NCBI GenBank assembly: GCA_043754515.1
Contig: JAYUUO010000152.1
Location: forward strand, 1 to 11,691
Direction of reading: 5' to 3'
DNA from: Armatimonadota bacterium
GTDB taxonomy: Bacteria > Armatimonadota > Armatimonadia > Armatimonadales > Armatimonadaceae
Length of the DNA stretch: 11,691 bases
The position numbers were made by a program. Of this stretch, positions 1-6,000 are shown piece after piece. Numbering within the stretch: the first letter of the stretch is position 1; the number at the start of each line of letters is the position of its first letter.

Positions 1-3000
1 ACGTGGCCTCGGCTCGCTCTAAATAGCGACCGAGCCAGAATAAGGAATCGGCTTCACGGGATAACATAAAAAAAGGGGCACGGAACGTGGGCGGGCACCG
101 CTCTGCTGTTCTCGCCATTATACGCAGTCACTAACGCTCCGTCAAGAAATCGTATTACCTCGCTAAAAATTTAACTCTCCGGAGGCGCGGGGCGAGACGG
201 CGTCCGCCTACGGGTTCTATCGGCTGGTTGAGGTACGATTCCTCTCGCTCCGGGGCAAAACCGCGCCCAGTGTCGCCGCTACGGAAGCACCCGTCTCGAA
301 CGCGCAAATCGCCCGCTTGCAGGGGAGGAGTGATCGGCCCGGTCGCGCGGCTACGAAAGCCGTCCCATGCCAACAAAGTTCGGAACCGGTGCTTTTCGAT
401 GGCCCCGGATACACGCCGAACGGTTCTCCACGGTTAGTTCGTGTCCACGCGCCGCGCGTTTGCGTGCCGATCCGCGCTTGTCGTCGGCGGCACTAAACGT
501 GTATAAGATGTGTAGATGCCCGCGACGAACGCTACCGAGGCCGCGTAGGGGTGCCGAGCGATTTGTGGGGATTCGCTCACCCGGTGGCCGCGCTTCACAT
601 CCCGACCCTTCGAGCGACGACCACTTCAGGCTTCGCTTCCTGTCCCACTCATGAATACACGATTCCCGCAGGTTCGCGAGCGATGAACGACGCGGAGGAG
701 CCGCGAGACAAGTTACGCCTCCCGTATCTCGACGGGGTGCGGGGCTTTAACACATTATATGTGGTCGTCTTTCACGCCTTACAGTTGTCCCCCGCGCACA
801 ACAATGTGTGGGTTGCCCCGTTCCTGTTCGGTCACTACGCCGTCACCGTCTTCATCGTCCTCTCGGGATACTCCCTGATGTTCTCCGTCGCGCATGGTCG
901 TGACGTCCGAACCTTCGTGGAGTGGCAGGAGTACGCCCAGCGACGCGCATGGCGCATCTTGCCTCCCTACTACGCGTCACTGATTTTGGGGTTGCTACTT
1001 TTCGTCGCGGTGCGAATCGTGACTCATCGCGACTTCTACTCCGGCTCCGGCCTCTACCGGAAGTCGCCGATGGCCGTAGACAACCTTCTGGCGCATGTTC
1101 TGGTTGAAGCCCGAGTGGACCTTCGTCAGCCCAAACCCGCCACTCTGGAGCGTGGCGACGGAGTGGCAGATCTACTGGCTCTTTCCGCTGATTTTGTTAC
1201 CATTCTGGCGGATCGGCAAGTGGTGGATCGGGCCTCCGCTGGCGATGCTGATCACTGTACCACTGTATTATATTCTACCGGATTATCGCTTCGTTTCTCC
1301 CTGGTTCGCGGCCGTCTTTGCTCTCGGGGCTGGAGCCGCCGTCCTGTCCGAAGATCCGAAGCGTAACCCGCGACTCCTGTGCATCATCGGCTTATCCTGT
1401 TCCCTTATTTTATTAGTCGTCTTCTCCCTGTGCGCCCACTTCTTCGGTGCCAACGTGGCGAGGAGCGTCATTCGGACGCGGGACTACTGGTACACGGATT
1501 TCATCTTGGGAGTCGGGGTCGCTGTCTTGCTTCTCTACTTGAGAGTGAGGAACCGGTCGTGGGTGGAGAACGGGCAAGCTGTTGAGTCGGACAATCCGCT
1601 GTCTCACCCCTTTTCTGTACTTCTTGGGAGGTTCTCCTACAGCCTTTACCTGACACACTTCGGCGTGCTGTACGTGGCCACGATGGCGTTCCCTAACATG
1701 GATGCTCTCCACGGCGTGCGCTACTGGCTGGCGAAGCTGTTTGCATACTGGTGGTGGTGGTGGTCGGGTACTTGTTTTACCTAGTCGTCGAGAGACGCGC
1801 GAAGGGAGCCATTAGCCGCGTCGCGACTTAACAGGCATACTAGGTCGTCTGGTGCCCCGCGCGTCGGACGTTTGTTCCGACTCCCGCCGGCGAAATAGCC
1901 GCAACGGGCGTGGCGCGGCGTTTCCCTGGGACTTCCGCCCTATTGCCCCGTGATTGCTCGCGGCGGTATACTTGCGGCGGAAGAGTTGTTGCAAGAGGAC
2001 AGGCGAACGAATGGAACATATGACCCACGAGAGTGGCGCGGTGATCTACAACCCGACGGCGGGGCGTGGGCAAGGCGGGACACTGTACAAAGAAGCGCAG
2101 GAGCTACTCGGCGGGAGTTTTACCTGGATTCCGACGCGCAAGCCGGGTCACGCGGAAGAATTGGCCCGCGAGGCCGCCAAAACGCACCCGGTCGTGGTCG
2201 CCATGGGCGGCGACGGTACGGTTGGGGATGTCATGCGCGGCATCCTCGGCTCAGACGCGACGCTCGGCATTCTGCCCGCCGGGACCGGCAACGACCTCGC
2301 GCGTAACCTCGGCCTCAAACTCGAACTACGCGAATCCGCCTCCACTATTCTCGGCGGCGTAGTGCGCAAGATTGACGTCGGGGTGATCAACGGCGTCCCG
2401 TTCATCAACAACTGCGGCACCGGGTTTGACGCGCAGGTGATGAAAACGATGAACACCTCCATCCGGTTCACGAAGGGCTACTTCGCGTTCCTGCTCGCCA
2501 TCATGAAGACACTGCCGACTTACAAACCGTTCACGCTTTCGATGGAGTACGAGAACGCCGAAGGACGGCAGAAGTTCTCCGAGAAGGCATTGCTGGTCTC
2601 CGCCCTGAACGGCAGGATGTACGGCGGCGGTATGATGGCCGCCCCACACGCCGAGATGGATGATGGGCACCTGGACGTGCTGGTGATCTCGGCGGTCCCT
2701 AAGATACAGTTGCTCCCGCTCATCGGTCAGGTGCGCGCGGGAACCCACCTTAACCATAAGGCGGTACGGATGCTCAAGGTGCGCAAGTTCACGATGCAGA
2801 CCATCCCGCCGCAGCCGCTCAATATTGATGGCGACGTGAAGGGCCTGACCCCGGCGAGCGTGGAAGTACGCCCGAACTCGCTCAAGGTGCTGGTACGGTG
2901 AGTGGCAGGTACGCCGCGCTGATCACGGCGGGCGGGCGTCTCGCGCCTGACATGGAACGCGTCTGCGGGACTCGTCTCAAAGCCCTCGCCCCGCTCCGCG

Positions 3001-6000
3001 ACGCGCTGTTCATCGAGCACGTGATCGTAGCCCTGCGTGACTCGGGCGCGGTGTCGGCGATAGCGGTTGTCGGCCCCGTCGGCGAACTGAGCGCGGCGGG
3101 TGTTGTCGCGGATGTGTGGGCGGACGAGGGCGCGACCGGCCCCGAAAACATCCGTCGCGGAATCGTCGCCTTGCGTGAAGCTGGCTATCTGGGGGGTGAA
3201 GAGCGTCTATTACTCTGCGCGACGGACGCGGTTTTTCTACACGCCGACACGGTGTGTGAGCTGATACGTGTCGCCGAAACGCGCCCGGACGCGGATGTTG
3301 TGTTTCCCGTCGTGCGCGAGGGTGATTACGAGTCGCGCTTCGCCGGTTCGCCGAATGTGTACGCGTCGCTCGCCGACGGCTCTCTGACCGGGAGTAGCGT
3401 CCAGATCGTGCGTCCCGCCGCGATGGAGCGTTGCCTTCCGCAGATCGAGCGGGCGTTCGCGGCGCGTAAATCGCAGTGGGAGATGGCAAAACTGCTCGGT
3501 ATCGGCGTCATCTGTCAGTTCCTGACGCGGACGCTGACCATCGCCGCCGCCGAGGCGCGGATCGCCGCCGTCACCGGGCTGATCGTCTACGCGCCGGTGT
3601 TCGCCGACCCGCGCGTCGCCGCCGATGTTGACACGCTTGGGGACTACGAGTTCGCGCTGAAACTTGTGCGCGACGAGGCGGCGGGGGGGGCGTTGTTGCG
3701 ATCATGAGTGGCTGGGAGCAGATGGCGCGCGACGCGCAGGAGAAGGCGGGTGCCGCGGCTCGGGATGCGCAAGGCCGTGCGCGGCAGATCGCCGAGGAAC
3801 GCTTAAAAGAGGCGCAGGAGCGAATCCGGGAGGCGCAAGAGTCCGCGACTCAACTCGCCCGTCAGCGGGCGGAGGAGGCGCAGGAGCTGGCCCGCCGCGC
3901 CGCCGAGACGATGCCGCGCGGTATGTTGGTGCGCCTCCTGTCGTTCGTGATCGGCATCCCGCTGTTGCCGCTTCTGGTGTTCGCGTACGGCACGGGACAG
4001 TATGCTGGGTTGCCGTTCACGTTCGCCACGGCGGCGTGCGCGACCATCGGCCTGTTCGAGTATTTCCGCGGGTTACGGTTTCGCGGGTACGCCCCGATTG
4101 ACGCCCCGGCGTACCTCGCGGTGATCCTGTTGCAGTTCGCGGCGTGGAACGTCAGCCGGGGGCACCTGATTAACTTCATCCCGGTCCTGCTCGCCGTGTC
4201 TACGCTCGGGACCACGATCTACGCCATCCTGCGCAAAAATAAGGAGCCGCTGGTCAACATCTCGCTGACTATCTTCGGCGTCGTGTACGTCGGCTGGCTG
4301 TTCTCCTACCTGGTGTTTTTGCGTTCGCTCCCTGGCACGGTGGCCGTGCCACTCTTGTTCGGGGGGCACTTCCCGGTGGCGGCGCGCGGGGCATGGCTGG
4401 TGCTGTACGTGTTCGCGACGACCTGGGGCGCGGACGCCGGGGCGTACTTCGTGGGGATGCGTTGGGGCAAAAAACCGCTCGCTCCGCGCCTATCGCCGAA
4501 GAAGACAGTGGAAGGCGCGGTCGGCGGCGTGCTGGCTGCTACGCTGATGTCGGTGCTGTGGGGCACTTGGATAGGGCTACCGTGGTGGCACTGCCTGATC
4601 CTCGGGCCTATACTCGGTATGCTCGGCGAGGTCGGGGATCTAGCAGAGTCGGCACTCAAGCGCGACCTGGGAATCAAGGACTTCGGCGGCATCCTGCCCG
4701 GCCACGGTGGAGTGCTAGACCGCTTCGATTCGATACTGTTCGCCGCGCCCGTCGCTTATTATTACCTGGTCATTGTCGTCCCGCGCCTACACTGATTGGC
4801 GTGGTCTAGAAGAGGTCACATGGGCGAGCAGAACGCGACATTGATAATTCGTCACGACACAATGACAAATTATCAATGTCGCGAATCCTTGACGCCCTTA
4901 TGCCGCGAACCCGACAACGGGTTCTGGCGACGCTTCTGCTAAACCCGGAGCGGGAATGGTACCTGACTGAAATCGCCTCTGCTGTAGGGATGCAACCGGC
5001 AAACCTACAGCGCGAGATGAAGTCGCTCGCTGATGGCGGTATCGTTTCGCAACGACGTGACGGCAACCGGGTGTATTATCGCGTTGAGGAGGACGCGCCT
5101 TACTATCAGCCACTCCGCGAATCGTTCTCTAGAACAGTCGGTGTTGTCAGTGTCATGCGACAGCGGCTTGTTCCTGTGTTGAAACCGAGGGACATCGCCT
5201 TCGTTTTTGGCTCGTTCGCTCGTGGAGAGGAAGGAGCGGTGAGTGATGTTGACCTCCTGGTCATCAAAGACACGTCGCTATTCGGTTTGTCGCTTCCGAT
5301 AAGGGGCTTGGAAGAAGGAGTGTTGCGCAGTGTCAACGCCGTGACCTATTCGGTGCCAGAGTTTCGCCCGAAGTGGCGGTCAAAGAACCACTTCATTGTC
5401 ACTGTGGTAGGATCTCCCAATCTGTTTTTGAAAGGGTGTGAAAATGACCTGGCGGAACTTACTAGATGATAGACAAATCCGTGCACACCACACGAGTAGA
5501 CAAGAGTTGCATGCCGCGTTGGTTTGAAGTTTCCGTAACGTGACAAATGCAGAAGTGGCGTAAGTTTCGCCCATGCTGACTCGCGCTTGTCAGCCAGCGT
5601 ACTGGCTGACGGGTAAACCTGGGCGGTGAGTGCATCCGGCTTGGTCCGCCGCGCGACTACCGCCCGAAGGATGTACTGTTTTGTCTACGCTTCGCCCTGA
5701 TGCCCGTACGCCTCGGCTTGTGTCCCGACACCTTCCTGCTTCGCCCAGTGGTTGCACGCGGAGGAGCCGCTAACTAGCAACGCGAACGGCTTGAGTGCCG
5801 GCTGGAGGCACAGACCGACCATCGGTATGTCGCTCTGCGGGCGGGGGGTGTCCGTTGACCAGAAGGAGCACGTCACGCACGCGCCGACGTTCTGCGCCAC
5901 CGGCAGGGCTAATGCCTTCTTGGCGTCGTTGTAATGGTTATAGAGGGGCATCGGTTCGGTATCCTTATCACGCGGCGGTGACGCCGCGTTGCGTTGTGTT

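Follow-up and report, generated by a model that had tools for sequence, protein, structure and literature searches.

How an Armatimonadota bacterium spends the CDP-diacylglycerol (CDP-DAG) made by its CdsA is the question raised by the window, a stretch of 11,691 nucleotides (contig JAYUUO010000152.1), in which cdsA closes an overlapping operon. The survey's finding, which named neither product nor pathway for the middle gene (g02603), had described dagK, g02603 and cdsA as one unit, and this was confirmed: the three ORFs share a strand and are joined by 4-base overlaps, GTGA between the kinase gene and g02603 and ATGA between g02603 and cdsA (Table 1). Our analysis suggests that the family of g02603, typified by TTHA0179 of Thermus, likely acts somewhere in the synthesis of phosphatidyl-glyceroyl-alkylamine (PGAA) lipids. 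The step assigned to g02603 itself, transfer of the phosphatidyl group from CDP-DAG to a glycerate acceptor, is proposed as a plausible but tentative reading.

Table 1. Genes of the operon in the window and related genes on other contigs of the same genome (contig name before the colon).
Feature	Position	Strand	Evidence or remark
dagK-like gene, YegS/BmrU-family lipid (diacylglycerol) kinase	2011-2901	+	PF00781, E 1.7e-30; PF19279, E 1.6e-32
g02603, 269 aa, TTHA0179/CC_1153-type protein of the GT-A nucleotidyltransferase fold	2898-3707	+	PF12804, E 7e-10; 2dpw, E 2.4e-16
CdsA, phosphatidate cytidylyltransferase (CDP-DAG synthesis)	3704-4795	+	PF01148, E 6.2e-58, residues 77-357
Acyl-ACP-reductase-like (AAR-like) gene	C258:2229-3302		Stands alone
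QdhX, orphan AAR/TAD-fold protein	C174:1417-2322		
Paralogue of g02603	C174:8070-8891		Near ispE, as earlier reported

The kinase scored above the cut-off of TIGR00147 (168 bits against 119) and, judging from its sequence, probably returns diacylglycerol to phosphatidic acid; the DAGK-family gene of ceramide-phosphoglycerate clusters is of the same Pfam fold class. CdsA carries a charged N-terminal extension of ~70 aa. Lgt and the C-terminal domain of MprF are each encoded in two copies, in agreement with the survey. The phylum is given as in the survey and as in the source names of close homologues.

Known phosphatidyltransferases were sought in this genome and across the phylum. PF01066 gave no match here (best E 0.835), while the control was positive in 13 of 14 genomes, D. 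radiodurans being the exception, and neither the strict nor the loose CDP-AP motif matched any of the 60,043 six-frame ORFs; both absences had been claimed before and stand. The domain was also missing, as predicted, from most of the phylum (128 of 151 genomes; found in 23) and from all 15 genomes of this order. The broader claim that every known transferase is absent holds for PF01066 in this genome but fails elsewhere, since a true pgsA occurs in one family (f24, with 2 of the 17 CDP-AP regions scanned passing the pgsA cut-off) and Cls-like proteins occur in some genomes of the order. The same 17 regions gave one PssA-like match, under its cut-off. Two-HKD proteins of ~375-410 aa were present at 10 of the 30 PLD loci of the order, and TIGR04265 matched the three scanned at E 1e-11 to 1e-14, far under its cut-off. 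The PF09139 (Tam41) profile matched nothing anywhere, control genomes included, and is thus uninformative.

These Cls-like proteins, the several paralogues per genome and the 92.7% completeness of this genome would suit a scheme in which another enzyme (divergent PLD/Cls-like, lipocone-type or other) uses CDP-DAG and g02603 performs a side modification of the lipid. However, no Cls-like two-HKD protein was found in this genome, and Cls-like genes are patchy, whereas every genome of the phylum samples has the g02603 family, CdsA and QdhX; judged on PLD/Cls-type proteins, we consider this scheme improbable. The main text of the lipocone paper does not discuss Armatimonadota, Deinococcus or Thermus.

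The sole PDB sequence relative of g02603 under E 0.1 was, as first noted, TTHA0179 of Thermus thermophilus HB8 (2dpw), an entry with no assigned function that is named in no paper among the matches listed in our literature search. The AF2 model of g02603 (pLDDT 96) superimposed on 2dpw with Z 28.9 and rmsd 1.8 over 231 residues, and GlmU, IspD and CobY followed with Z about 19. Membership in the TTHA0179/CC_1153 family was evident from full-length similarity, a GT-A core with a helical insert and the pattern D...RK...G...DxD. Among the residues described as invariant, D110, R190, K191, G201, D243 and D245 are conserved in 96-100% of 259 family sequences, but G88 in only 80%. The metal-binding aspartates D110, D243 and D245 reach 99-100%, as expected for a GT-A nucleotidyltransferase fold.

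In the alignment, the conserved Arg of the GxGxR loop was not found at family positions 14-16 (R14 in 37%), and Glu replaces K28 in 15% of the sequences. The latter substitution favours phosphatidyl transfer. Against it, the close structural neighbours (GlmU, IspD, CobY and the CMP-Kdo/NeuAc synthetases) are all NTP-using nucleotidyltransferases, and R190-K191 could stand in for the lost Arg. Neither the PF01066-type motif (DxxDGxxAR...GxxxDxxxD) nor a membrane helical bundle was found in g02603. With PgsA, PssA and PIP synthase (PF01066) and the HKD/PLD transferases (Cls, PssA type I) it would share only the proposed phosphatidyl transfer from CDP-DAG with release of CMP; it is a soluble or peripheral GT-A protein with no kinship to them in sequence, motif or fold.

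The family was detected in all 151 phylum genomes (149 with E<1e-40) and CdsA in 61 of 61 sampled, which bears out the near-universality of the first and the retention of the second. Set against the 23 genomes with PF01066, this distribution argues for phosphatidyl transfer. The link to cdsA, described as rare outside the order, is not confined to it: at least 13 of the 61 genomes, drawn from four families, have it; in one genome (G006), QdhX, the family member, an MFS gene and cdsA lie on one strand. The best 80 of 555 matches in a scan of named genomes were nearly all titled Bacillota, so that this set does not define how widely the family occurs, and members exist in Moorellaceae. No named Deinococcus member was found among the matches listed by protein searches, which weighs against phosphatidyl transfer. 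In a sample of 221 genomes of the Bacillota, the phylum of Desulfitispora, 103 carried the family and pgsA, 59 the family only, 46 pgsA only and 13 neither. A strict PgsA substitute was therefore rejected, as 103 of 162 family-bearing genomes also carry pgsA, and the lack of strict anticorrelation weighs against phosphatidyl transfer.

The commonest context of the family is ispE, found at 76 of 80 Bacillota loci and beside the family member at 17 of 72 phylum loci, with the order ispE-family-dxs in two phylum genomes (G144 and G135). Since ispE, not lipid genes, forms the most widespread context, this too disfavours phosphatidyl transfer. These arrangements, along with IspD among the top fold matches, could indicate an accessory of the isoprenoid (MEP) pathway that handles CDP-ME or CDP-MEP, the cdsA link being incidental. 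We regard such a role as highly unlikely: ispE sits in a conserved housekeeping block (prs, pth, ksgA), the proteobacterial branch comes with lipid genetics (see below), and in the family tree the clade that includes g02603 (support 0.998, 50 of 84 sequences) comprises cdsA/dagK-, plsY-, GDPD- and CDP-AP-linked copies but no ispE-linked ones. The genome also has a separate IspD-like gene on contig C173 (E 3e-50, 172 bits, just under cut-off); given this gene and the absence of a TIGR00453 match, g02603 was rejected as an IspD replacement.

A product is suggested by lipid chemistry. In a single meeting abstract, all phospholipids of the armatimonadete Chthonomonas calidirosea are given as PGAA, the Thermus/Deinococcus class. 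Phospholipids of the glycerate-alkylamine kind were recognised in Deinococcus and Thermus as early as 1985-1991; the Thermus lipid has phosphatidate on O-2 of a glyceric acid alkylamide, and its pathway was then without assigned steps. Moorella is listed as having N-glyceroyl alkylamines. Thermus thermophilus, the host of TTHA0179, makes a phosphatidyl-glyceroyl-alkylamine glycolipid and gave no pgsA match as a control genome. No paper naming the biosynthetic genes of the Deinococcus/Thermus lipids was found in a literature search that did not reach Bale et al. 2025 and Huang and Anderson 1991.

Candidate genes for the alkylamine part co-occur with the family. In the Bacillota sample, 127 of 130 carriers of the AAR-like gene also have the family, and QdhX and the family agree in 215 of the 221 genomes (159 both, 56 neither), although these counts include kin and are not independent. 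Of 66 AAR-like proteins, 63 retain GxxGxxG and 64 the Cys motif; a transaminase is fused to the AAR-like part in 5 of 5 scanned, and PlsY in two. PtTamH, which joins a transaminase to a thioester reductase, has the domain pair and order of the Bacillota fusions and, together with cyanobacterial acyl-ACP reductase, serves as a model for the amine module; the TamH architecture yields fatty amines from acyl-ACP. TamH serves a natural product, whereas the AAR-like gene is a conserved single-copy gene whose reductase is unfused in this genome. QdhX had no Pfam, PDB-sequence or plasmid match, the structures it resembles (Z 14.3, rmsd 3.8; Z 13.0, rmsd 4.6) point to no function, and it lacks the invariant Cys of the terminal amidation domain (TAD). 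QdhX look-alike clusters are most frequent in Armatimonadota, Deinococcota and Bacillota; one QdhX cluster is commonest in Deinococcota, where Thermus has TTHA0179. TIGR04058 matched Thermus and Deinococcus at E<=0.01, as it did E. coli and others, but not at 1e-15. The co-occurrence, the TamH-like fusions and the contexts of the g02603 clade favour a lipid-pathway role; four f10 genomes that lack an AAR-like gene, though they have the family, CdsA and QdhX, count against it.

The PGAA amide requires an activating step, and g02603 might supply it by converting the glycerate carboxyl to an acyl-NMP for amide formation with the alkylamine, as the co-occurrence with the amine module and the use of carboxylic acids by CMP-sugar-acid synthetases of related fold would allow. 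This appears very improbable, however: an AAR-like match is missing in 35 of 162 family-bearing genomes, QdhX, resembling the terminal amidation domain, offers an alternative for the amide step, and the proteobacterial branch serves ceramide phosphoglycerate lipids (CPG and CPG2), whose head group has no PGAA-type amide.

Caulobacter CC_1153 (CCNA_01211, a MobA-like NTP transferase), the probable counterpart of that branch, is needed for ceramide diphosphoglycerate (CPG2). Its loss raises ceramide as kinase loss does, slows growth and abolishes CPG2; the deletion gives a stronger CPG spot on TLC, and the authors place the gene after CPG, propose an NTP-consuming role and can name no enzyme that joins glycerate to activated ceramide. 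Proteobacterial family members (profile E 4e-57) follow lptF-lptG-bCerS-like genes, the CC_1153 position, with full-length members and a DAGK-family kinase in Roseomonas and Pseudomonas clusters. We infer the Roseomonas gene to be the CC_1153 counterpart from gene order and annotation, rather than from alignment with CC_1153 itself. Zymomonas keeps CC_1160, CC_1161 and CC_1153 but not CC_1159. CC_1153 shares a phosphoglycerate head group with the PGAA reading of g02603, but its pathway is one of the outer membrane with ceramide lipids as substrates, and CC_1161 takes the place of CdsA as its activating partner. The CC_1153-position members and the mutant phenotype favour a lipid-pathway role, whereas the persisting CPG-like spot disfavours phosphatidyl transfer as the step.

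The neighbouring Caulobacter gene encodes CpgD (CCNA_01210, COG1213, LicC-like), a CTP:phosphoglycerate cytidylyltransferase, that is, a GT-A enzyme making CDP-glycerate, with the fold and lipid head-group chemistry proposed for g02603. Orthology was rejected, as CpgD is COG1213 and its Roseomonas counterpart is the adjacent LicC-like gene. That gene matched the family profile over the first ~60 positions only (E 4e-7), its protein gave no pairwise match to g02603, and full-length similarity to LicC-like proteins was thus not seen. R16 of CpgD, its PPi-binding Arg, has no conserved counterpart in the g02603 family, which favours phosphatidyl transfer.

The GT-A fold with its Asp triad, the Caulobacter authors' proposal with the CPG spot of the mutant, and the CDP-glycerate chemistry of CpgD would agree with a true nucleotidyltransferase of the same pathway (CofC/CpgD-like), in which NTP activates an intermediate that carries phosphoglycerate (2-phosphoglycerate, its alkylamide or a phospho-lipid) and a further enzyme couples this to the diacylglycerol moiety. 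However, use of an NDP-alcohol would ordinarily call for a CDP-alcohol phosphotransferase, not found in 128 of 151 genomes, CdsA would have no consumer, the Roseomonas cluster has its own CpgD-like gene, and the GxGxR Arg is not conserved. This alternative is somewhat unlikely.

Under phosphatidyl transfer, the operon would be the CDP-DAG arm of a PGAA pathway replacing PG/CL synthesis in most Armatimonadota. By family annotation, the kinase and PlsY/PlsC would supply phosphatidic acid and CdsA would convert it to CDP-DAG. With its GT-A fold and hydrophobic helical insert, g02603 may hold the CDP group at its Asp/Mg site and pass the phosphatidyl group to the 2-OH of D-glycerate or N-alkylglyceramide, releasing CMP. 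The AAR-like enzyme and a class III transaminase would make the long-chain amine, as the TamH-like fusions suggest, and QdhX might, at best, be the candidate for the amide step. The survey had left the fate of CDP-DAG unexplained with g02603 as best head-group candidate; this is strengthened by the Chthonomonas lipids, the CC_1153 genetics and the alkylamine-module co-occurrence, but neither total transferase absence nor simple PgsA substitution survives.

More tentatively still, the TTHA0179 family could be a third class of CDP-lipid phosphatidyltransferase, GT-A and neither CDP-AP nor HKD. It would belong to an old Terrabacterial PGAA route (with CdsA, a TamH-like reductase/transaminase and an amide-forming QdhX) shared by Armatimonadota, Deinococcota and many of the anaerobic Bacillota, and Proteobacteria would have recruited it to attach phosphoglycerate to CDP-ceramide.

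If true, this would explain how a phylum builds its membranes, and supplies Lgt and MprF, largely without PG, and would provide a gene marker for glycerate-alkylamine lipids across hundreds of uncultured genomes. It gives four testable candidates for the synthesis of Thermus/Deinococcus-type lipids, one of which has a known crystal structure and comes from a thermophile amenable to genetics, and it suggests which enzyme might perform the condensation that is missing from the Caulobacter route to ceramide-phosphoglycerate. Should phosphatidyl transfer be borne out, phospholipid synthesis would gain a new class of enzyme.

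The genome (5.13 Mb, 92.7% complete) carries on contig C152 three genes, for a lipid kinase, the TTHA0179-family GT-A protein g02603 and CdsA, in which adjacent genes share four bases at each junction on the same strand; the operon described in the survey's finding is real. The placement of the genome in Armatimonadota follows the survey and the source organisms given for homologues. Just upstream, the acyltransferase-3 gene is split by a frameshift or an assembly error. The CdsA N-terminus shows a charged, repeat-like extension of ~70 aa ahead of the Pfam domain, and a similar stretch was found in relatives from the same family. 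No HEPN partner of the ArsR-HTH/Pol-beta fusion was found among ORFs of at least 80 aa.

Features of contig C152 and of two further contigs, C174 and C258, of the same genome
Feature	Position	Strand	Match or remark
Acyltransferase-3 gene, split over two frames	683-1784	+	PF01757, profile 2-98 and 118-317
YegS/BmrU lipid kinase	2011-2901	+	TIGR00147 over cut-off
g02603	2898-3707	+	PF12804 as only Pfam match
cdsA	3704-4795	+	PF01148, E 6e-58
CdsA N-terminal extension	3704-3920	+	
ArsR-type HTH fused to Pol-beta nucleotidyltransferase	4876-5469	+	weak MntA antitoxin match
AAA ATPase	6046-7422	-	
tRNA-Leu(TAA)	7558-7643	+	
Clp_N-repeat protein	8409-9482	+	
SbcC, cut by contig end	9507-11690	-	
QdhX	C174:1417-2322		300 aa, without Pfam match
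Locus of g02603 paralogue (L175)	G000:C174:1417-10826		
Acyl-ACP-reductase-like gene	C258:2229-3302		TIGR04058 E 2.6e-24, below cut-off; PDB 4ppm E 4.5e-29, 6jzq E 4.6e-19

The reported gap in phospholipid genes is real, but its absolute wording, that every known phosphatidyltransferase is lacking, is not. PF01066, the CDP-alcohol phosphatidyltransferase (CDP-AP) family, had no match over cut-off in this genome, with 13 of 14 controls positive (the exception was D. radiodurans), and strict and loose CDP-AP motifs matched none of its 60,043 six-frame ORFs. PF01066 was present in 23/151 phylum genomes at least 90% complete, including 0/15 from this order. Of the 17 CDP-AP regions scanned (of 25), two, both from the phylum family f24, pass the pgsA cut-off; a third resembles PssA but does not reach the cut-off for it. 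PLD domains were found in 39/41 order genomes; those of this genome, judged by eye, belong to one single-HKD nuclease-like protein, two apparently helicase-fused proteins of ~1,100 aa and a weak match of 749 aa. In other order genomes, 10 of 30 fetched PLD loci (L221-L224, L226-L230, L232) encode two-HKD proteins of ~375-410 aa; three of these were scanned, and their matches to cardiolipin synthase (E 1e-11 to 1e-14) fall far short of the cut-off. Known transferases are therefore lacking in this genome and uncommon across the phylum, but not wholly absent from it, given the f24 pgsA and the Cls-like two-HKD proteins. A side role of g02603 beside an undetected transferase is rather improbable. 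The retention of CdsA, Lgt and an MprF-like pair was borne out, with CdsA in 61/61 phylum genomes at least 95% complete, and two copies each of Lgt and of the MprF C-terminal domain in this genome.

The two-HKD proteins have no close relatives among named families. Two phylum genomes (L305 in G066, L306 in G040) have a phosphodiesterase-cdsA-CDP-alcohol phosphotransferase cluster together with a second cdsA.

The AlphaFold model of g02603 (pLDDT 96) matched TTHA0179 (PDB 2dpw) with Z 28.9 and rmsd 1.8 over 231 residues, followed by GlmU, IspD and CobY at Z ~19. A family profile built from 133 sequences detected the family in 151/151 phylum genomes, in 149 of them with E<1e-40. Most residues described as invariant proved so or nearly so over 259 sequences (D110 100%; D243, D245 and R190 99%; G201 98%; K191 96%), whereas G88 reached 80%; N84 is conserved in 91%, and K28 is replaced by Glu in 15%. 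Within the family's helical insert, residues 201-211 are more hydrophobic than any other of the 11 helical segments measured, which would fit membrane contact.

Chthonomonas is a member of Armatimonadota. According to a 2011 meeting abstract, the phosphatidyl-glyceroyl-alkylamine (PGAA) structure occurs in all phospholipids of Chthonomonas calidirosea (PMC3367263). The acidic glycolipid of T. thermophilus HB8 has a PGAA scaffold, with phosphatidate on O-2 of glyceric acid alkylamide, which is shared by D. radiodurans lipids, and its biosynthetic pathway was described as under study at the time (PMC3398001; PMC9189128). Moorella thermoacetica is tabulated with N-glyceroyl alkylamines in a source that cites Bale et al. 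2025 for such lipids in Bacillota (PMC13274423). No publication linking the family to the glycerate-lipid pathway was found; Bale et al. 2025 may discuss genes. A phosphate-borne glycerate lipid is a feature common to Armatimonadota, Thermus, some Bacillota and Caulobacter. Thermus and Deinococcus are among the control genomes that had no pgsA match.

PGAA requires a long-chain amine. The acyl-ACP-reductase-like (AAR-like) gene, whose match 4ppm is PigE, was found in 145/151 phylum genomes, and of 66 copies 63 contain GxxGxxG and 64 the Cys motif. In all five long Bacillota-lineage frames scanned it is fused to a class III transaminase. PtTamH, which converts acyl-ACP to fatty amines, has this pair of domains in identical order (PMC9594044). 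A PlsY fusion to the AAR-like domain was found in two phylum genomes (L217, L218). The usual neighbour of the AAR-like gene (15/30 phylum loci) is that for QdhX, an orphan protein present in 61/61 phylum genomes, with look-alike clusters commonest in Armatimonadota, Deinococcota and Bacillota. Its model matched AAR (Z 14.3, rmsd 3.8) and a putative terminal amidation domain (Z 13.0, rmsd 4.6) described in 10.1101/2024.10.28.620694; no conserved Cys was found in QdhX. Four genomes of family f10 (L299-L302), with a GT4 glycosyltransferase gene after QdhX, had no AAR-like and no PF01066 match while the family, CdsA and QdhX were present; these may use another amine or none.

An IspE-like gene, recognised by eye, was present in 76 of the best 80 named-genome loci, nearly all titled Bacillota, and BLAST agreed with this identity in 8/10 sampled loci. 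In a tree of 84 sequences from hand-chosen, non-random loci (one gene twice), the ispE-linked phylum copies form a group of 22 with support 0.75, including the C174 paralogue, while g02603 falls in a clade of 50 (support 0.998) with copies beside cdsA/dagK, MFS transporter, plsY, GDPD and CDP-AP genes. An isoprenoid link is best supported by an ispE-family-dxs run in two genomes (L274, L275); such a role seems very unlikely. A cdsA gene lies within 1.6 kb of the family gene in at least 13/61 genomes of four families (coordinates for 150/451 matches). Genome G006 has a QdhX-family-MFS-cdsA run on one strand, and G124 a row of MGDG-synthase-like, plsY-like, family, radical SAM, CDP-AP, phosphoesterase and MFS genes.

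The C174 paralogue is flanked by gmk-like and methyltransferase/ispE-like genes; QdhX lies ~6 kb away on this contig. In eight loci, all from family f5 (L258-L263, L281, L292), a RidA/YjgF gene lies directly 3' of the family gene, and many of these loci also have an upstream SPFH gene.

Co-occurrence was scored by simple counts, in which kin are not independent, in 221 genomes of the phylum holding Desulfitispora alkaliphila; the family was found in 162, QdhX in 162, the AAR-like gene in 130 and pgsA in 149. The family and QdhX occur together in 159 genomes, each alone in three and neither in 56, despite lying tens of kb apart or on separate contigs. The family is present in 127/130 AAR-positive genomes. 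Family and pgsA occur together in 103 genomes, with 59 family only, 46 pgsA only and 13 neither, which indicates a parallel route rather than strict replacement of pgsA.

Fourteen proteobacterial plasmid records matched a family member; in the two examined, the matching gene lies in a sphingolipid cluster that also carries spt-like, DAGK-family and lptF/lptG genes. The two proteins are full-length members (profile E 4e-57 and 7e-52), and a plasmid member is 27% identical to g02603 over 258 residues. The neighbouring LicC-like gene in Roseomonas, the counterpart of CpgD, which makes CDP-glycerate from CTP and 2-phosphoglycerate (PMC12275187; PMC13228409), is not a family member. Plasmid pPNP1 of Pseudomonas sp. 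JS425 (L252) has a sphingolipid cluster with a family gene preceded by an IS5, a kinase gene and a gene like that of a Roseomonas 318 aa hypothetical protein; no annotated CpgD- or CpgA-like gene lies within 9 kb.

By annotation and the gene order lptF2-lptG2-cerS-CC_1153-CC_1152, the proteobacterial family gene is CC_1153/CCNA_01211 of Caulobacter (PMC11324152). That study reports that deletion of CC_1153 abolished ceramide diphosphoglycerate (CPG2), strongly raised ceramide and slowed growth; that CC_1161 is proposed to make activated ceramide, the enzyme condensing it with glycerate being unknown to the authors; and that Zymomonas keeps CC_1160, CC_1161 and CC_1153 and lacks CC_1159 (PMC11324152). 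The lipid kinase-g02603-cdsA operon has a parallel in Caulobacter, which likewise combines a lipid kinase with a CDP-lipid synthase and a family protein. For CC_1153 itself, the authors of that study suggest a role that consumes an NTP (PMC11324152). An ordinary NTP-using activation step is favoured by the GT-A fold; the Arg after the glycine loop of NTP-using relatives (R16 in CpgD) has no conserved counterpart in the 259 family sequences, and we regard such a step as unlikely, and carboxyl activation as far more so.

The family probably has a role in glycerate-on-phosphate lipid chemistry. For g02603 we tentatively propose, at somewhat less than even chances, that it would move phosphatidyl from CDP-DAG onto glycerate or N-alkylglyceramide. 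Three points favour phosphatidyl transfer: no consumer is known for the universal CdsA, kinases and CDP-lipid synthases recur as companions of the family, and the usual PPi-binding Arg is missing. The strongest result against it is the ceramide-phosphoglycerate (CPG) spot, identified by TLC mobility only, which persists and is stronger in the CC_1153 mutant, as the accessible text reports (PMC11324152). These results link an orphan structural-genomics family with an unsolved lipid pathway and name four testable genes. If transfer were shown, the family would represent a new enzyme class.
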